NCBI RefSeq assembly: GCF_016026235.1
Contig: NZ_CP065613.1
Strand: one strand, 5' to 3'
DNA: 64,000 nt
Source of the DNA: Escherichia coli
GTDB lineage: Bacteria > Pseudomonadota > Gammaproteobacteria > Enterobacterales > Enterobacteriaceae
The translations under genes and the position numbers were made by a program. This document shows, piece by piece, positions 2,481 to 45,363 of this stretch. The notes beneath the pieces were generated by a model that saw only the letters and a list, made by a program, of their open reading frames with translations, was not told where the DNA came from and did no database searches. Position 1 is the first letter of the stretch. Each line of letters starts with the position of its first letter.

Positions 2481-2978
2481 ATAGCAATCAAACCGAAGCC
2501 ACATATGCGCGGCCAGATTGTTGACAAAGGGCGCTTTGTTCATGCCGGATACGGCATGAACGCTTTATTCGGTCTACAAAAGCAGGCAAATTCAATATAT
2601 TGCAGAGATGATGTAGACACTGGCAAGCGTAGTGCATCAGGTAATTTTGCGTTTATCTTCACTCTCAAGCCACGTATATGTGGCTTTATTTTTAACAAAA
2701 TAATAACCCTGGGTGAGTTAATTATAATATAATTATAAGTTAATTAAATGTTAATATTGGCGGGGTGGATTTATGCCTTTATTAGTAATCCTGAAACTCT
2801 GCGTCGTATTAGCCAGTGACCAAAAAAAGAATTAAGGTCAACCGTGCTGTTTTTGCTTCGTCTCTTTTTATCTTTAATTGCCAACCGAAACTAATTTCAG
2901 CCTTATAACTCACACATTTTAAACATAAATGTCACTAAAGTTACCTTATTGAAACATGATTAACATAATTTGTAGGAA

Positions 2979-9476: not shown

Positions 9477-9608
9477 TCGCGATGTTGACTGTTCGGACGG
9501 TCAACATCAGGCACCGGTTGCCACGGGGTTCTGGTAGTTTTGTGTATTTTAGTTTGTTAACATTCTGCTAAATTATCGTGGGCCATCGGTCCAGATAAGG
9601 GAGATATG

Positions 9609-10901
9609 ATGAAGCAGGCATTACGAGTAGCATTTGGTTTTCTCATACTGTGGGCATCAGTTCTGCATGCTGAAGTCCGCATTGTGATCGACAGCGGTGT
9701 AGATTCCGGTCGTCCTATTGGTGTTGTTCCTTTCCAGTGGGCGGGGCCTGGTGCGGCACCTGAAGATATTGGCGGCATCGTTGCTGCTGACTTGCGTAAC
9801 AGCGGTAAATTTAATCCGTTAGATCGCGCTCGTCTGCCACAGCAGCCGGGTAGTGCGCAGGAAGTACAACCAGCTGCATGGTCCGCACTGGGCATTGACG
9901 CTGTAGTTGTCGGTCAGGTCACTCCGAATCCGGATGGTTCTTACAATGTTGCTTATCAACTTGTTGACACTGGCGGCGCACCGGGTACTGTACTTGCTCA
10001 GAACTCGTACAAAGTGAACAAGCAGTGGCTGCGTTATGCTGGTCATACCGCCAGTGATGAAGTGTTTGAAAAACTGACCGGCATTAAAGGTGCGTTCCGT
10101 ACCCGTATTGCCTACGTTGTTCAGACCAACGGCGGTCAGTTCCCGTATGAACTGCGCGTATCTGACTATGACGGTTACAACCAGTTTGTCGTTCACCGTT
10201 CACCGCAGCCGCTGATGTCTCCGGCGTGGTCACCAGACGGTTCTAAACTGGCTTATGTGACCTTCGAAAGCGGTCGTTCCGCGCTGGTTATTCAGACGCT
10301 GGCAAATGGCGCTGTACGTCAGGTGGCTTCATTCCCGCGTCACAACGGTGCACCTGCATTCTCGCCAGACGGCAGCAAACTGGCATTCGCCTTGTCGAAA
10401 ACCGGTAGTCTGAACCTGTACGTAATGGATTTGGCTTCTGGTCAGATCCGCCAGGTGACTGATGGTCGCAGTAACAATACCGAACCGACCTGGTTCCCGG
10501 ATAGCCAGAACCTGGCATTTACTTCTGACCAGGCCGGTCGTCCGCAGGTTTATAAAGTGAATATCAACGGCGGTGCGCCACAACGTATTACCTGGGAAGG
10601 TTCGCAGAACCAGGATGCGGATGTCAGCAGCGACGGTAAATTTATGGTAATGGTCAGCTCCAATGGTGGGCAGCAGCACATTGCCAAACAAGATCTGGCA
10701 ACGGGAGGCGTACAAGTTCTGTCGTCCACGTTCCTGGATGAAACGCCAAGTCTGGCACCTAACGGCACTATGGTAATCTACAGCTCTTCTCAGGGGATGG
10801 GATCCGTGCTGAATTTGGTTTCTACAGATGGGCGTTTCAAAGCGCGTCTTCCGGCAACTGATGGACAGGTCAAATTCCCTGCCTGGTCGCCGTATCTGTG
10901 A
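9609..10901 (+). CDS. tolB: Tol-Pal periplasmic beta-propeller protein TolB
   Basis: [21 protein letters not shown] signal peptide, 430 aa; ORF-track start is one codon upstream. Confidence 0.95.
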
Positions 10902-10911
10902 TAATAATTAA

Positions 10912-11457
<546 letters not shown>

Positions 11458-11466
11458 GAGAATTGC

Positions 11467-12258
11467 ATGAGCAGTAACTTCAGACATCAACTATTGAGTC
11501 TGTCGTTACTGGTTGGTATAGCGGCCCCCTGGGCCGCTTTTGCTCAGGCACCAATCAGTAGTGTCGGCTCAGGCTCGGTCGAAGACCGCGTCACTCAACT
11601 TGAGCGTATTTCTAATGCTCACAGCCAGCTTTTAACCCAACTCCAGCAACAACTTTCTGATAATCAATCCGATATTGATTCCCTGCGTGGTCAGATTCAG
11701 GAAAATCAGTATCAACTGAATCAGGTCGTGGAGCGGCAAAAGCAGATCCTGTTGCAGATCGACAGCCTCAGCAGCGGTGGTGCAGCGGCGCAATCAACCA
11801 GCAGCGATCAAAGCGGTGCGGCGGCATCAACGACGCCGACAGCTGATGCTGGTACTGCGAATGCTGGCGCGCCGGTGAAAAGCGGTGATGCAAACACGGA
11901 TTACAATGCAGCTATTGCGCTGGTGCAGGATAAATCCCGCCAGGATGACGCAATGGTGGCATTTCAGAATTTCATCAAAAATTACCCTGATTCAACTTAC
12001 CTGCCAAACGCCAATTATTGGCTGGGTCAGTTAAACTACAACAAGGGTAAAAAAGATGATGCGGCGTACTATTTTGCTTCGGTAGTGAAAAACTATCCGA
12101 AGTCACCAAAGGCTGCTGATGCGATGTTTAAAGTCGGCGTCATCATGCAGGACAAAGGTGACACCGCAAAAGCGAAAGCCGTATACCAGCAGGTTATCAG
12201 TAAATACCCTGGTACTGATGGCGCTAAACAGGCACAAAAACGTCTGAACGCGATGTAA
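11467..12258 (+). CDS. cpoB: cell division coordinator CpoB (YbgF), TPR protein
   Basis: 263 aa with signal peptide, coiled-coil region and TPR-like C-terminus; last gene of the tol-pal cluster. Confidence 0.9.
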   Translation: MSSNFRHQLLSLSLLVGIAAPWAAFAQAPISSVGSGSVEDRVTQLERISNAHSQLLTQLQQQLSDNQSDIDSLRGQIQENQYQLNQVVERQKQILLQIDSLSSGGAAAQSTSSDQSGAAASTTPTADAGTANAGAPVKSGDANTDYNAAIALVQDKSRQDDAMVAFQNFIKNYPDSTYLPNANYWLGQLNYNKGKKDDAAYYFASVVKNYPKSPKAADAMFKVGVIMQDKGDTAKAKAVYQQVISKYPGTDGAKQAQKRLNAM

Positions 12259-12422: not shown

Positions 12423-12498
12423 GGGTCGTTAGCTCAGTTGGTAGAGCAGTTGACTTTTAATCAATTGGTCGCAGGTTCGAATCCTGCACGACCCACCA
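12423..12498 (+). tRNA. lysT: tRNA-Lys (anticodon UUU)
   Basis: GGGTCGTTAGCTCAGTTGGTAGAGCAGTTGACTTTTAATCAATTGGTCGCAGGTTCGAATCCTGCACGACCCACCA; cloverleaf and CCA end. Confidence 0.97.
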
Positions 12499-12525
12499 AT
12501 CGCTAAGGTGGAAGCGGTAGTAAAA

Positions 12526-12598
12526 CGTGAAGGATAACGTTGCATCAGCAACGGCCCGAAGGGCGAGACGAAGTCGAGTCATCCTGCACGACCCACCA
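12526..12598 (+). repeat. spacer repeat copy 1 ending in a duplicated tRNA-Lys 3'-end fragment (..gtcatcctgcacgacccacca)
   Basis: about 72 nt, near-identical to copies at 12815-12885 and 13119-13189; last ~19 nt match the T-arm/acceptor 3' end of tRNA-Lys. Confidence 0.8.
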
Positions 12599-12633
12599 CT
12601 AACATAGTTAGTTGTAGTATCCAGCGTAGTATT

Positions 12634-12709
12634 GGGTGATTAGCTCAGCTGGGAGAGCACCTCCCTTACAAGGAGGGGGTCGGCGGTTCGATCCCGTCAT
12701 CACCCACCA
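12634..12709 (+). tRNA. valT: tRNA-Val (anticodon UAC)
   Basis: GGGTGATTAGCTCAGCTGGGAGAGCACCTCCCTTACAAGGAGGGGGTCGGCGGTTCGATCCCGTCATCACCCACCA. Confidence 0.97.
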
Positions 12710-12711
12710 CC

Positions 12712-12787
12712 GGGTCGTTAGCTCAGTTGGTAGAGCAGTTGACTTTTAATCAATTGGTCGCAGGTTCGAATCCTGCACGACCCACCA
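12712..12787 (+). tRNA. lysW: tRNA-Lys (anticodon UUU)
   Basis: identical to lysT copy. Confidence 0.97.
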
Positions 12788-12814
12788 GTTTTAGCATCGA
12801 AGACAGATGTTAAG

Positions 12815-12885
12815 CGTGTAGGATAACGTTGCGTCAGCAACGGCCCGTAGGGCGAGCGAAGCGAGTCATCCTGCACGACCCACCA
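12815..12885 (+). repeat. spacer repeat copy 2 with tRNA-Lys 3'-end fragment
   Basis: cgtgtaggataacgttgcgtcagcaacggcccgtagggcgagcgaagcgagtcatcctgcacgacccacca. Confidence 0.8.
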
Positions 12886-12936
12886 CTAATTACGGTGGGT
12901 TCGGTGGAAGTAGTTTGTAGTATCCAGCGCAGTATC

Positions 12937-13012
12937 GGGTGATTAGCTCAGCTGGGAGAGCACCTCCCTTACAAGGAGGGGGTCGGCGGTTCGATCCCGT
13001 CATCACCCACCA
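12937..13012 (+). tRNA. valZ: tRNA-Val (anticodon UAC)
   Basis: identical to valT copy. Confidence 0.97.
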
Positions 13013-13015
13013 CTC

Positions 13016-13091
13016 GGGTCGTTAGCTCAGTTGGTAGAGCAGTTGACTTTTAATCAATTGGTCGCAGGTTCGAATCCTGCACGACCCACCA
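13016..13091 (+). tRNA. lysY: tRNA-Lys (anticodon UUU)
   Basis: identical to lysT copy. Confidence 0.97.
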
Positions 13092-13118
13092 ATTTTAACA
13101 TCAAACTCAGATGTTAAG

Positions 13119-13189
13119 CGTGAAGGATAACGTTGCGCCAGCAACGGCCCGAAGGGCGAGCGAAGCGAGTCATCCTGCACGACCCACCA
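13119..13189 (+). repeat. spacer repeat copy 3 with tRNA-Lys 3'-end fragment
   Basis: cgtgaaggataacgttgcgccagcaacggcccgaagggcgagcgaagcgagtcatcctgcacgacccacca. Confidence 0.8.
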
Positions 13190-13237
13190 ATCTTAAAGAT
13201 TGGCCCCGAGTAAAAATCTTTCAGGTAACACCCGTAT

Positions 13238-13313
13238 GGGTCGTTAGCTCAGTTGGTAGAGCAGTTGACTTTTAATCAATTGGTCGCAGGTTCGAATCCT
13301 GCACGACCCACCA
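13238..13313 (+). tRNA. lysZ: tRNA-Lys (anticodon UUU)
   Basis: identical to lysT copy. Confidence 0.97.
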
Positions 13314-13346
13314 TCCTGAATGATTAAAGCAGCATAATCCCGCAAG

Positions 13347-13422
13347 GGGTCGTTAGCTCAGTTGGTAGAGCAGTTGACTTTTAATCAATTGGTCGCAGGT
13401 TCGAATCCTGCACGACCCACCA
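13347..13422 (+). tRNA. lysQ: tRNA-Lys (anticodon UUU)
   Basis: identical to lysT copy. Confidence 0.97.
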
Positions 13423-13426
13423 ATGT

Positions 13427-13455
13427 AAAAAAGCGCCCTAAAGGCGCTTTTTTGC
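13427..13455 (+). terminator. rho-independent terminator of the lysT tRNA operon
   Basis: aaaaagcgccctaaaggcgcttttttg: GC stem plus T-run right after lysQ. Confidence 0.85.
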
Positions 13456-13609
13456 TATTCAGGCATCTCTCAATTTCAATTCTTGACCCTGATGACATAC
13501 TCCGCGCTTGCTGCGTAAACAACTTTACGTCGGAGGAATAAGACGCAAAGTGTGGCATTCGGCATCTCATACGTAATTCGAGTGACTTTTCCCCACCATT
13601 CGACTATCT

Positions 13610-13699: not shown

Positions 13700-14743
13700 A
13701 TGAGCGTGATGTTTGATCCAGACACGGCGATTTATCCTTTCCCCCCGAAGCCGACGCCGTTAAGCATTGATGAAAAAGCGTATTACCGCGAGAAGATAAA
13801 ACGTCTGCTAAAAGAACGTAATGCGGTGATGGTTGCCCACTACTATACCGATCCCGAAATTCAACAACTGGCAGAAGAAACCGGTGGCTGTATTTCTGAT
13901 TCTTTGGAAATGGCGCGCTTCGGTGCAAAGCATCCCGCCTCTACGTTGTTAGTCGCTGGGGTGAGATTTATGGGAGAAACCGCCAAAATTCTCAGTCCGG
14001 AAAAAACAATTCTGATGCCGACACTTCAGGCTGAATGTTCACTGGATCTCGGCTGCCCTGTTGAAGAATTTAACGCATTTTGCGATGCCCATCCCGATCA
14101 TACTGTCGTCGTCTACGCCAACACTTCTGCTGCGGTAAAAGCGCGGGCAGATTGGGTGGTAACTTCAAGCATTGCCGTCGAACTTATTGATCATCTGGAT
14201 AGTTTGGGTGAAAAAATCATCTGGGCACCCGACAAACATCTGGGGCGTTACGTGCAAAAACAGACGGGCGCAGACATTTTATGCTGGCAGGGTGCCTGCA
14301 TTGTGCATGATGAATTTAAGACTCAGGCGTTAACCCGCTTGCAAGAAGAATACCCGGATGCTGCCATACTGGTGCATCCAGAATCACCACAAGCTATTGT
14401 CGATATGGCGGATGCGGTCGGTTCCACCAGTCAACTGATCGCTGCTGCGAAAACATTGCCACATCAGAGGCTTATTGTGGCAACCGATCGGGGTATTTTC
14501 TACAAAATGCAGCAGGCGGTGCCAGATAAAGAGTTACTGGAAGCACCAACCGCGGGTGAGGGCGCAACCTGCCGCAGCTGCGCGCATTGTCCGTGGATGG
14601 CCATGAATGGCCTTCAGGCTATCGCAGAGGCATTAGAACAGGAAGGAAGTAATCACGAGGTTCATGTCGATGAGAGGCTGCGAGAGAGGGCGCTGGTGCC
14701 GCTCAATCGTATGCTGGATTTTGCGGCTACACTACGTGGATAA
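13700..14743 (+). CDS. nadA: quinolinate synthase NadA
   Basis: 347 aa; [22 protein letters not shown]...; conserved Cys ligands; synteny nadA-pnuC. Confidence 0.95.
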
Positions 14744-31629: not shown

Positions 31630-31824
31630 TCACGAGGACAGAAGTTTCTCGCAATTAAAATTTATCAGTTTTACTTTCTGCTCTCTGGAAACGCCTGCTT
31701 CTTTTTTCCCTGAGAGCATTTTTTCGCATTCTGATTTCGTTAGTTTAGATTTTGAATATCTTGTCCAGCTGGTAGGAGAACCACCTTCCTTTTCAATAGT
31801 GGCTGTAATTTTATACATGAACAC
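31630..31824 (-). CDS. hypothetical phage protein (64 aa)
   Basis: ORF in the leftward early operon between the ATPase gene and xis. Confidence 0.4.
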   Translation of the reverse strand: MFMYKITATIEKEGGSPTSWTRYSKSKLTKSECEKMLSGKKEAGVSREQKVKLINFNCEKLLSS

Positions 31825-36505: not shown

Positions 36506-36821
36506 GATGGCAGCCTCGATAGTCAGTTTAAATAACTCACCACCAGAGGTAGCAATCTCATGGGTGGTGAGACGCACAGGGTTGCTACAACCGGTGACTA
36601 CCGAAACCGGCCAGCCTTGCGGCTGCCCTGCACGCCCCACCATAATCTGAATGTGGCTGTGCTTGACGCATAAAAAAACCGCCTGAGCGCGGTTATGCGC
36701 AGTAGTCATCGTCGGGGTAGCAATCCCGGCCCCCGTTTTATGAGGTGCAGGTGCACTATAATTCCACCCGTTCTGGTTTTCAATAGCTACATTCAACATT
36801 TTCTCTCACCTTTCATCACCG

Positions 36822-42464: not shown

Positions 42465-42691
42465 TTTTATGGGGCACCTTTCTGATTGATTTCATATTGG
42501 CGAGGTAAGTAGAATGACTGCGGGTGCTTGAGGCTATCTGCTTCAGGCATGAACACCAAAAGGCAGATAGAGAAAAGCCCCAGTTAACATTACGCGTCCG
42601 GCAAGACGCTTAACATTAATCTGAGGCCAATTTCATGCTTTGCACATGTAGGTTAGCCTCTTACATGCCGAAAGGCAAGGAGAAGCAGGCT

Positions 42692-42847
42692 ATGAAGCAG
42701 CAAAAGGCGATGTTAATCGCCCTGATCGTCATCTGTTTAACCGTCATAGTGACGGCACTGGTAACGAGGAAAGACCTCTGTGAGGTACGAATCCGAACCG
42801 GCCAGACGGAGGTCGCTGTCTTCGTAGACTACGAATCCAGGAAGTAA
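42692..42847 (+). CDS. hok: Hok/Gef-family type I toxin (51 aa)
   Basis: MKQQKAMLIALIVICLTVIVTALVTRKDLCEVRIRTGQTEVAVFVDYESRK; in-frame upstream extension from 42635 resembles a mok-like leader ORF. Confidence 0.85.
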   Translation: MKQQKAMLIALIVICLTVIVTALVTRKDLCEVRIRTGQTEVAVFVDYESRK

Positions 42848-45052: not shown

Positions 45053-45129
45053 GGCCCTTTAGCTCAGTTGGTCAGAGCGAGCGACTCATAATCGCCAGGT
45101 CGCTGGTTCAAGTCCAGCAAGGGCCACCA
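45053..45129 (+). tRNA. tRNA-Ile2 (anticodon CAU, lysidine-type; close relative of E. coli ileX)
   Basis: GGCCCTTTAGCTCAGTTGGTCAGAGCGAGCGACTCATAATCGCCAGGTCGCTGGTTCAAGTCCAGCAAGGGCCACCA; cannot fully exclude Met by sequence alone. Confidence 0.8.
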
Positions 45130-45130
45130 A

Positions 45131-45207
45131 CCACCACTAGCTCATCCGGATAGAGCATCAACCTTCTAAGTTGACGGTGCGAGGTTCGAGTCCTCGGTGG
45201 TGGGCCA
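45131..45207 (+). tRNA. tRNA-Arg (anticodon UCU)
   Basis: CCACCACTAGCTCATCCGGATAGAGCATCAACCTTCTAAGTTGACGGTGCGAGGTTCGAGTCCTCGGTGGTGGGCCA; cloverleaf folds, C1-G72 pair. Confidence 0.75.
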
Positions 45208-45209
45208 GC

Positions 45210-45285
<76 letters not shown>

Positions 45286-45288
45286 TAT

Positions 45289-45363
<75 letters not shown>

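Follow-up and report, generated by a model that had tools for sequence, protein, structure and literature searches.

The spacers of the lysT tRNA operon of Escherichia coli contain a repeat of 72-74 nucleotides (nt) which, we conclude, is a short-form member of RtT, an RNA family that is already catalogued. Three copies lie in the 64,000-nt stretch of contig NZ_CP065613.1 (assembly GCF_016026235.1) that was analysed here and is called the window throughout, one in each of the three long spacers of the operon, and each copy ends in an exact duplicate of the 3' end of tRNA-Lys. Our reading as a whole, which we regard as moderately probable, is that these short-form RtT units are tRNA-derived spacer modules, transcribed together with the tRNAs and trimmed in a tRNA-like manner, which arose in the T-loop of a tRNA gene and are turned over through the 18-nt duplicate of the tRNA end. 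The most interesting by-product of the analysis is a comparative rule, drawn from sequence, by which the ends and the closing strands of such units appear to be matched to whichever tRNA adjoins them; this rule is unstated in the searchable literature, a search outside of which the founding papers fall.

Three repeats in the lysT operon

Seven tRNA genes, in the order Lys, Val, Lys, Val, Lys, Lys, Lys, were located by ARAGORN at 12423-13422 (Table 1) and, because the array sits 3' of cpoB and 5' of nadA, it can be identified as the E. coli lysT operon. The spacers between the genes measure, in order, 135, 2, 149, 3, 146 and 33 nt and are referred to below as spacers 1 to 6. The original prediction, made from the letters of the window alone, held that three of these spacers contain a repeat of about 72 nt that ends in the last 19-20 nt of tRNA-Lys. 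The repeat itself is borne out. The units are 91.9-95.8% identical in pairwise comparison, the whole spacers only 70-78%, with further similarity 5' of the unit that is common to spacers 3 and 5. Each long spacer has a single match to a 30-nt core pattern, ACGTTGC-N4-GCAACG-N-CCCGWAGGGCGA, which makes exactly three in the window, at 12537, 12826 and 13130, and the terminal 18-mer ATCCTGCACGACCCACCA occurs eight times in the window, comprising the five true tRNA-Lys 3' ends and three spacer copies; neither was found in dinucleotide-preserving shuffles of the window. The extent of the tRNA copy has to be corrected to exactly 18 nt, starting at A59 of the T-loop; the preceding 'tc' can be aligned with the tRNA only by means of a 2-nt gap.

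About 45-50 nt of every unit form a core that is not tRNA sequence. The last 18 nt are the only tRNA sequence present, neither ARAGORN nor Rfam calling a tRNA cloverleaf in the spacers, and the sub-threshold Rfam matches to YrlA and Plastid-ycf2 are the tRNA genes themselves. The repeat is genuine, conserved and well above chance. As to the YrlA (Y RNA-like) match, at 13258-13398 with 44 bits versus 69, it covers parts of two tRNA-Lys genes and the short spacer between them, and is most likely an artefact of tRNA-likeness.

Membership of the RtT family

RtT is a family built on the 178-bp repeats of tyrT, its K-12 member being rttR (b4425). The Rfam model (RF00391; gathering score 45) matches the window at 12430-12598, 12719-12885 and 13023-13189 with scores of 60.2, 54.9 and 57.8 bits, respectively. 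In these alignments model positions 1 to ~57 fall on the real tRNA-Lys, there is a 44-nt insertion, and the match resumes only from GGAUAACG onward.

The units agree with the tyrT members of the family in position, in core and in their two ends. Each lies 26-27 nt 3' of a tRNA-Lys gene, co-oriented with it and inside a tRNA operon, as the tyrT repeats lie 3' of a co-oriented tRNA gene in theirs. The core is the same, consisting of the hairpin CGUUGC/GCAACG, then CCCGAAGGGCGA, a variable hairpin and GAGUM. The terminal copy is in both cases taken from the adjacent tRNA and runs from the T-loop to the CCA, with exact 18-mers at 12581, 12868 and 13172 in the window, and a 5' strand pairs with this copy. 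The differences are those of a reduced form. The canonical 5' domain, which comprises GAUGAGAA, a hairpin, the T-arm 5' half GGUUCGA and CUCGAGCG, is absent from the window units apart from the closing strand, so that about 55 nt of it are missing from these 72-74-nt elements; within the window spacers nothing comes closer to the T-arm 5' half than a match with 4-5 mismatches in 10, no better than background. It is because the 5' domain is reduced to the closing strand that we speak of a short form. The terminal copy is 18 nt of tRNA-Lys in the window units, compared with 19 nt of tRNA-Tyr in tyrT RtT, and whereas a released RNA has been described for tyrT RtT, the lysT units are known here from their sequence.

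Both loci can be compared in the K-12 genome. Four RtT units with scores of 133-138 bits are present at tyrT, each of which ends in AATCCTTCCCCCACCACCA, the last 19 nt of tRNA-Tyr, and the lysT operon has five units, each with the terminal tRNA-Lys 18-mer. The annotated 3' end of the K-12 RtT RNA, rttR, is the last A of a pseudo-CCA. Existing annotation captures the family in part: PGAP (NCBI) gives the label 'RtT sRNA' to the unit after lysQ in strains that have that unit, and leaves unlabelled the spacer copies, which overlap tRNA calls. A Klebsiella genome annotation of 2014 lists four clustered 'RtT RNA' genes of 166-170 nt, a length equal to that of the window Rfam matches that span tRNA-Lys and spacer.

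Predicted structure and covariation

The minimum-energy fold predicted for each window unit has a 10-bp closing helix, CGUG(A/U)AGGAU/AUCCUGCACG, around three hairpins, of which the first is CGUUGC/GCAACG, the second GCCC-GAA-GGGC and the third small, with the tail ACCCACCA left single-stranded. The z-scores of these folds range from -2.0 to -4.5. For the short form found beside tRNA-Arg the predicted closure is 13 bp, exactly ACCA is left free and z = -5.2; because of this 13-bp closure and ACCA tail, the Arg short form resembles an acceptor/T-arm minihelix. Acceptor/T-arm minihelices and other tRNA-like ends are recognised by tRNA-processing enzymes, and share with RtT a continuous helix of T-stem and acceptor stem that is followed by a single-stranded ...ACCA. 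The Lys units differ from minihelices in that three of the seven acceptor pairs form, giving an 8-nt tail, and in that the T-loop is replaced by three hairpins.

Is this fold maintained while its sequence changes? Across 20 distinct short-form units, pairs form in 94.7% of cells, compared with 88.0% in column shuffles (0 of 500 reached the observed value) and 28-49% when the 3' partner was slid. Two-sided changes are present in five pairs, four of them in the closing helix. In hairpin 3, represented by 39 distinct sequences of 7-13 nt with 17 stem strands, ~90% of the possible nested pairs form, with a mean of 3.3 nested pairs against 0.58 for shuffled sequences and 1.84 for swapped halves. 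Pairs were counted directly for this hairpin; RNAalifold, run on a MAFFT alignment, recovered hairpins 1 and 2 and missed the length-variable hairpin 3. The same kind of change is seen within the window, where the hairpin 3 stem of unit 1 has exactly one A-T pair more than the stems of units 2 and 3.

The closing helix follows the adjacent tRNA. The 5' closing strand pairs at 4.1 of six positions with its own pseudo-end, compared with 2.7 of six for the pseudo-ends of other tRNA types, and in Budvicia the closing pair GGAGAAGG/CCTTCTCC tracks the change in that lineage's tRNA-Tyr. The strand resembles the acceptor 5' strand fused to the T-stem 5' strand, segments that lie ~40 nt apart in tRNA. 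Since one gene-conversion tract could not keep both segments matched, we favour the view that the match of the closing strand would reflect selection for pairing.

Of 13 Lys short-form units, 12 also have a conserved A-G mismatch midway along the closing helix (alignment columns 9/68; window 12533/12586 and 13126/13177). Window unit 2 alone has U-G at this point (12822/12873), where the other Lys short-form units have A-G.

The core beside other tRNAs

The core GCNACGNCCCGAAGGGCGA was scanned in one genome per species and found at 120 or more loci (at least 120), and the cross-genome counts given here are among the matches listed. More than half of these matches are without a close co-oriented tRNA upstream, most being single matches in unrelated taxa, which are taken as chance, with a few genuine copies (locus-end cut-offs, rRNA operons). 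The remaining matches come from Enterobacterales and from Gilliamella (Orbaceae), Marinobacterium, Amphritea, Thioalkalivibrio and Photobacterium, and several are confirmed as RtT by Rfam. Comparison across Enterobacteriaceae had been put forward with the original prediction as a check, and the comparison made here places the same core beside Tyr, Arg, Pro and Ser tRNAs and in several orders of Gammaproteobacteria.

Tracking of the tRNA was counted on the 64 core matches that have a co-oriented tRNA no more than 700 nt upstream. In 50 of them a perfect 18/18 copy of the local tRNA 3' end follows 31-37 nt after the core, and five further pseudo-ends carry 1-2 mismatches. The host tRNAs are Lys(UUU), Tyr(GUA), Arg(ACG), Pro(UGG), Pro(CGG) and Ser(UGA). 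Variants of the tRNA that are specific to a lineage are also copied faithfully; for example, the copy has ACGCCCC for Citrobacter Lys, ATCCCGC for Hafnia Lys, ATCTTCCTGGGTGCACCA for Hafnia Arg and CCTTCTCCC for Budvicia Tyr. Two architectures recur, a long form of about 125-130 nt, which is canonical RtT, and a short form of ~72 nt, which is found in lysT-type and argV-type spacers and in which the 5' strand directly abuts hairpin 1.

A related module of ~73 nt was also observed. It consists of an extra hairpin, CAAAATYGTCG-GGAA-CGAYTTTG, followed by hairpin 1, CCCGAAGGGCGAG, a TCTCAGGAxGAGA hairpin and CGAGTA, and has no separate family in Rfam. It stands in rRNA operon spacers at locus L078 (~14520-14640, sense, just 5' of 5S rRNA) and locus L112 (~9600-9720, antisense, 3' of 5S rRNA), is present also at L107 and L109, and is nested after GTCGA inside a Lys long-form RtT unit at L086 and L009, the unit being uninterrupted in the neighbouring locus L087. 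Two 156-nt units were observed 5' of tRNA-Ser(GGA) in an Alcanivoracaceae metagenome-assembled genome (L064, 7250-7720). These are mirrored, in that each starts with the first 22 nt of tRNA-Ser, ending GGTCGA in the D-loop, after which comes the RtT core (GCGACGGCCCGAAGGGCGA), and it is the tRNA 5' end that is duplicated, not the 3' end.

Turnover between E. coli strains

In an explicit comparison of four strains, all five positions of the operon proved to be polymorphic within E. coli. The window strain has units in spacers 1, 3 and 5, with spacer 6 and the site after lysQ empty; strain 13TMH22 has the same three, an empty spacer 6 and a unit after lysQ; K-12 has units in spacers 1, 3, 5 and 6 and after lysQ; and in SCPM-O-B-8794 spacers 5 and 6 are occupied, spacers 1 and 3 and the site after lysQ being empty. 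What is present or absent is a cassette of 98-100 nt, made up of linker, core and 18-mer, and each spacer indel is bounded by the 18-mer. Cassette 1 (12499-12598) is precisely missing from SCPM-O-B-8794, as can be seen from its lysT-valT spacer of 35 nt, 34 of which agree with window 12599-12633; the lysW-valZ spacer of the same strain is 51 nt long and has no RtT core. After lysQ, K-12 and 13TMH22 carry a 155-nt long-form RtT cassette between 54-nt direct repeats that comprise the 18-mer and the terminator. Strain comparison shows that cassettes are lost via the 18-nt direct repeats, and they are possibly gained in the same way; deletion by slippage or recombination between direct repeats would be sufficient for the E. 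coli indels.

In spacers 3 and 5, but not in spacer 1, a 9-bp A/U-rich hairpin was noticed in the linker between the true CCA and the RtT unit (12790-12814 and 13094-13118). It is part of the cassette that is gained or lost.

The original prediction took the repeats to be remnants of unequal recombination between tRNA copies. As an account of turnover this holds, since cassettes that are present or absent between strains are bounded by the 18-mer; for the same reason recombination at the tRNA-end repeats explains turnover, not origin. As an account of what the repeats are, it fails on the non-tRNA core found beside other tRNAs, the Rfam RtT matches and the compensatory changes in the hairpins. 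Taken to its full extent, the idea would make the units inert scars, left behind when tRNA-Lys copies crossed over unequally or slipped, and free of both function and selection. We judge this distinctly unlikely. It fits the presence or absence of E. coli cassettes exactly at 18-nt repeats, the dispensability of the units and the decayed terminal copies that were found, as well as the text of the published Northern analysis, where a stable spacer RNA in the wild type goes unreported. It does not accommodate a non-tRNA core that is conserved beside six kinds of tRNA, from Enterobacterales to Gilliamella, Marinobacterium, Amphritea, Thioalkalivibrio and Photobacterium, a hairpin 3 that keeps its pairing while sequence and length change, or a closing strand that covaries with tRNA type, and recombination between Lys genes alone cannot make a core that is common to tyrT.

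Origin of the module

The unit is best described as a module with three parts: a 10-nt 5' strand, a core of ~45 nt whose three hairpins would occupy the place of the T-loop, and a tRNA copy that runs from position 59 to the CCA. We infer that a duplicated tRNA gene received the core in its T-loop and that the 5' body of this gene was later lost or reduced. In the long forms the insert is immediately flanked by the two halves of the local T-arm, the 5' half (xxxGGTTCGA, with 0-1 mismatch) preceding it and the 3' half following it. At a locus of Phytobacter massiliensis (L071, ~2650-2860, minus strand as fetched), a near-complete degenerate tRNA-Tyr contains the core between A58 and A59 of its T-loop. 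An intact tRNA-Tyr gene lies just 3' of this pseudogene, which has the look of a transitional stage in the emergence of RtT units.

From these features a broader proposition can be put forward tentatively, namely that RtT units are widespread, tRNA-matched mimics of minihelices, generated when a module of ~65 nt entered the T-loop (TTCGA^AT) of a tRNA gene copy, and that they have colonised at least six tRNA identities across Gammaproteobacteria, with the 5' closing strand and the 3' pseudo-end both being kept co-adapted to the host tRNA. If this is true, the co-adapted flanks imply either an unrecognised insertion mechanism that targets the T-loop or selection for a tRNA-specific RNA function.

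Could the core instead be, or once have been, a small selfish insertion module that targets TCGA^A, mainly in the T-loop sequence GGTTCGA^ATCC? The pseudo-ends would then be the displaced part of the tRNA, and the structure would belong to the element. The Phytobacter pseudogene, split exactly at A58|A59, is what such an element would leave, and the retention of both halves of the local T-arm in long forms, the related module nested after GTCGA in L086 and L009 but not in L087, the mirrored L064 units with 22 nt of tRNA-Ser 5' sequence ending GGTCGA, the antisense copy beside the 5S rRNA gene of L112 and the colonisation of at least six tRNA identities all point the same way. We nevertheless consider it unlikely. 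Of the features of a miniature inverted-repeat transposable element, there are presence/absence polymorphism and one nested and one antisense relative, but terminal inverted repeats were not seen, and the units are linked to neither a transposase nor an integrase. Phage and plasmid collections yield no genuine match to the core, the hits in them being chromosomal pieces, and core hits in viral contigs are chance matches or tRNA gene flanks. Nearly all sampled units are found within operons for stable RNAs and share their orientation, in keeping with selection that acts on the RNA; the copies at the loci that were inspected stand in tRNA or rRNA operons and, but for the one antisense copy, point the same way as the RNA gene next to them. 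The E. coli polymorphism, finally, is explained by deletion between 18-nt repeats, and calls for no insertion activity.

Integrases of the T-loop type leave behind directly repeated tRNA 3' segments beginning within the T-loop, and the resemblance raises the question of whether the pseudo-ends are attL/attR scars of prophages or integrative elements that inserted into tRNA-Lys. In both cases T-loop-to-3'-end repeats of a tRNA flank inserted DNA. Attachment duplications, however, flank a gene-bearing mobile element, whereas the RtT 'insert' is ~80 nt of structured, non-coding sequence beside many tRNA identities. With just 98-100 nt between the repeats and neither genes nor a credible open reading frame (ORF) within them, the same core beside six tRNA types, each with a matched end, and no homologue of the core in any true phage or plasmid record, this explanation is effectively excluded.

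Peptide coding was considered in view of tpr in the tyrT repeats and was rejected; the spacer ORFs are just 20-54 amino acids (aa) long, with GTG, TTG or ATG starts, some being Arg-rich, and give no support to the idea. Small Arg-rich ORFs (26-37 aa, starting with GTG or TTG) do run through the repeat cores (12527-12607, 12829-12942 and 13133-13213) and recall the 'protamine-like' tpr ORF annotated in the K-12 tyrT repeats, with no evidence of translation.

Proposed fate of the spacer RNA

The units lie within the lysT transcription unit. We propose that in the lysT precursor their RNA would fold into the closed helix round three hairpins with ACCCACCA left free. RNase P and RNase E would first separate the tRNAs. 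The closed fold and the tRNA-like CCA end would give 3' exonucleases a defined stop, and the spacer, then released, would probably be trimmed like a tRNA by-product. Such trimming agrees with the annotated 3' end of the tyrT RtT RNA. That end, at the CCA of a pseudo-end, also lends indirect support to the suggestion in the original prediction that the pseudo-ends could serve as decoy processing sites for RNase P/E or 3' exonucleases, a role that is conjectural for the lysT spacers. Spacer probes were used on Northern blots in a study of lysT processing and, according to its text, detect polycistronic precursors; no intrinsic terminators or promoters are predicted inside the spacers on the + strand.

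A parallel exists in the glyW-cysT-leuZ transcript, the 3' external transcribed spacer of which sponges small RNAs. Like the RtT units, it is a non-tRNA part of a polycistronic tRNA transcript that could be released by processing; the RtT units differ in having a copy of the tRNA end and a predicted closed multi-hairpin fold.

It is very doubtful, in our estimation, that the released spacer RNAs act in trans, whether as regulators, as sponges or as mimics of uncharged tRNA ends in the amino-acid starvation response. Bosl and Kersten 1991, as cited in PMC4986893, describe the release of RtT RNA from tyrT and from other tRNA operons and link it to modulation of the stringent response, and the role proposed for tyrT RtT RNA goes back to this one old report. 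RtT-family RNAs were detected by Northern blots in Actinobacillus, according to that source, and RtT RNAs are differentially expressed in Klebsiella and Thioalkalivibrio transcriptomes; the predicted free tRNA-like ...ACCA tail would also suit such a role. Against this, neither a target nor a mechanism has ever been demonstrated, a stable lysT spacer species is not described for wild-type E. coli in the text of the processing study, copy number varies freely between strains, and changes in 'expression' may just follow transcription of the tRNA operon.

Several observations weigh against our reading of the repeats as co-transcribed, tRNA-like RtT modules of T-loop origin. The spacer-probe Northern analysis shows only precursors in the rnpA49 mutant and 'surprisingly few' intermediates in the wild type, as far as its text goes, and in that text a stable lysT spacer RNA in the wild type is absent. 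Cutting by RNase P at the closing helix is unsupported, because the annotated 5' end of rttR is near the tRNA and not at the helix. The structure that was scored on the 20 short-form units was derived from those same sequences, and part of the covariation in the closing helix could stem from descent from the local tRNA, not from selection. Because the real tRNA-Lys takes up about half of the Rfam model in the alignment, the score is in part a measure of tRNA-likeness. The exact match to the tRNA is not universal, since 14 of the 64 listed pseudo-ends are mismatched, nine of them at three or more positions; the decayed pseudo-ends that were inspected include last copies of arrays and copies outside Enterobacterales. 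Finally, no single unit is essential, because there are strains that lack the units of spacers 1 and 3, or those of spacer 6 and after lysQ.

Features of the operon and its surroundings

The elements of the operon are collected in Table 1.

Table 1. Genes, RtT cassettes and related elements of the lysT operon in the window
Feature	Position	Strand	Details
lysT, tRNA-Lys(UUU)	12423-12498	+	ARAGORN; last 18 nt (12481-12498) are the template of the pseudo-ends
Cassette 1, lysT-valT spacer	12499-12598	+	26-nt linker and 74-nt short-form RtT unit (12525-12598); closing strand CGTGAAGGAT 12526-12535; hairpin 1 12538-12553; hairpin 2 GCCC-GAA-GGGC 12554-12564; hairpin 3 GAC-GAA-GTC 12567-12575; pseudo 3' end 12581-12598
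valT, tRNA-Val(UAC)	12634-12709	+	ARAGORN; no unit after valT, lysW 2 nt away
lysW, tRNA-Lys(UUU)	12712-12787	+	ARAGORN
Cassette 2, lysW-valZ spacer	12788-12885	+	9-bp linker hairpin (~12790-12814) and 72-nt unit (12814-12885); closing strand CGTGTAGGAT 12815-12824, full 10-bp helix with one G-U pair; pseudo 3' end 12868-12885
valZ, tRNA-Val(UAC)	12937-13012	+	ARAGORN
lysY, tRNA-Lys(UUU)	13016-13091	+	ARAGORN
Cassette 3, lysY-lysZ spacer	13092-13189	+	Linker hairpin (~13094-13118) and 72-nt unit (13118-13189); closing strand 13119-13128; pseudo 3' end 13172-13189
lysZ, tRNA-Lys(UUU)	13238-13313	+	ARAGORN
lysZ-lysQ spacer, 33 nt	13314-13346	+	Empty site; filled in K-12 by an exact 99-nt cassette of this kind, the spacer then measuring 132 nt
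lysQ, tRNA-Lys(UUU)	13347-13422	+	ARAGORN
Operon terminator hairpin with T-run	13423-13458	+	Junction 13458/13459 is an empty site

Other RNA features were recorded in the surroundings of the operon. Just 5' of it, at 11358-11496, lies a match to the CpoB/ybgF RNA thermometer (RF02782, 142 bits). A lambdoid prophage lies ~18 kb 3' of the operon, with RNA features at 31634-31812, 36560-36748, 42522-42697 and 45053-45363. They are Rfam matches to RalA antitoxin RNA, C4 antisense RNA, isrK and sok, with C4 antisense RNA and isrK on the minus strand, and a Met-Arg-Thr-Gly tRNA cluster 3' of a gene that matches the antiterminator Q genes of E. coli phages, including Stx-converting ones.

Implications

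For the window itself the significance of these repeats is small; the family is catalogued, the bacterium is the best studied of all and its strains do without individual units. At the level of annotation, automated pipelines label only some copies 'RtT sRNA' and miss those that overlap tRNA calls. The wider pattern, in which one core stands beside many tRNA types with matched ends, a covarying helix and rapid change in copy number, may be of interest to specialists. It bears on the processing of polycistronic tRNA precursors, for which the published lysT model omits these structures, and on the expansion and contraction of tRNA gene arrays, and it offers a concrete way into the decades-old question of what RtT does.

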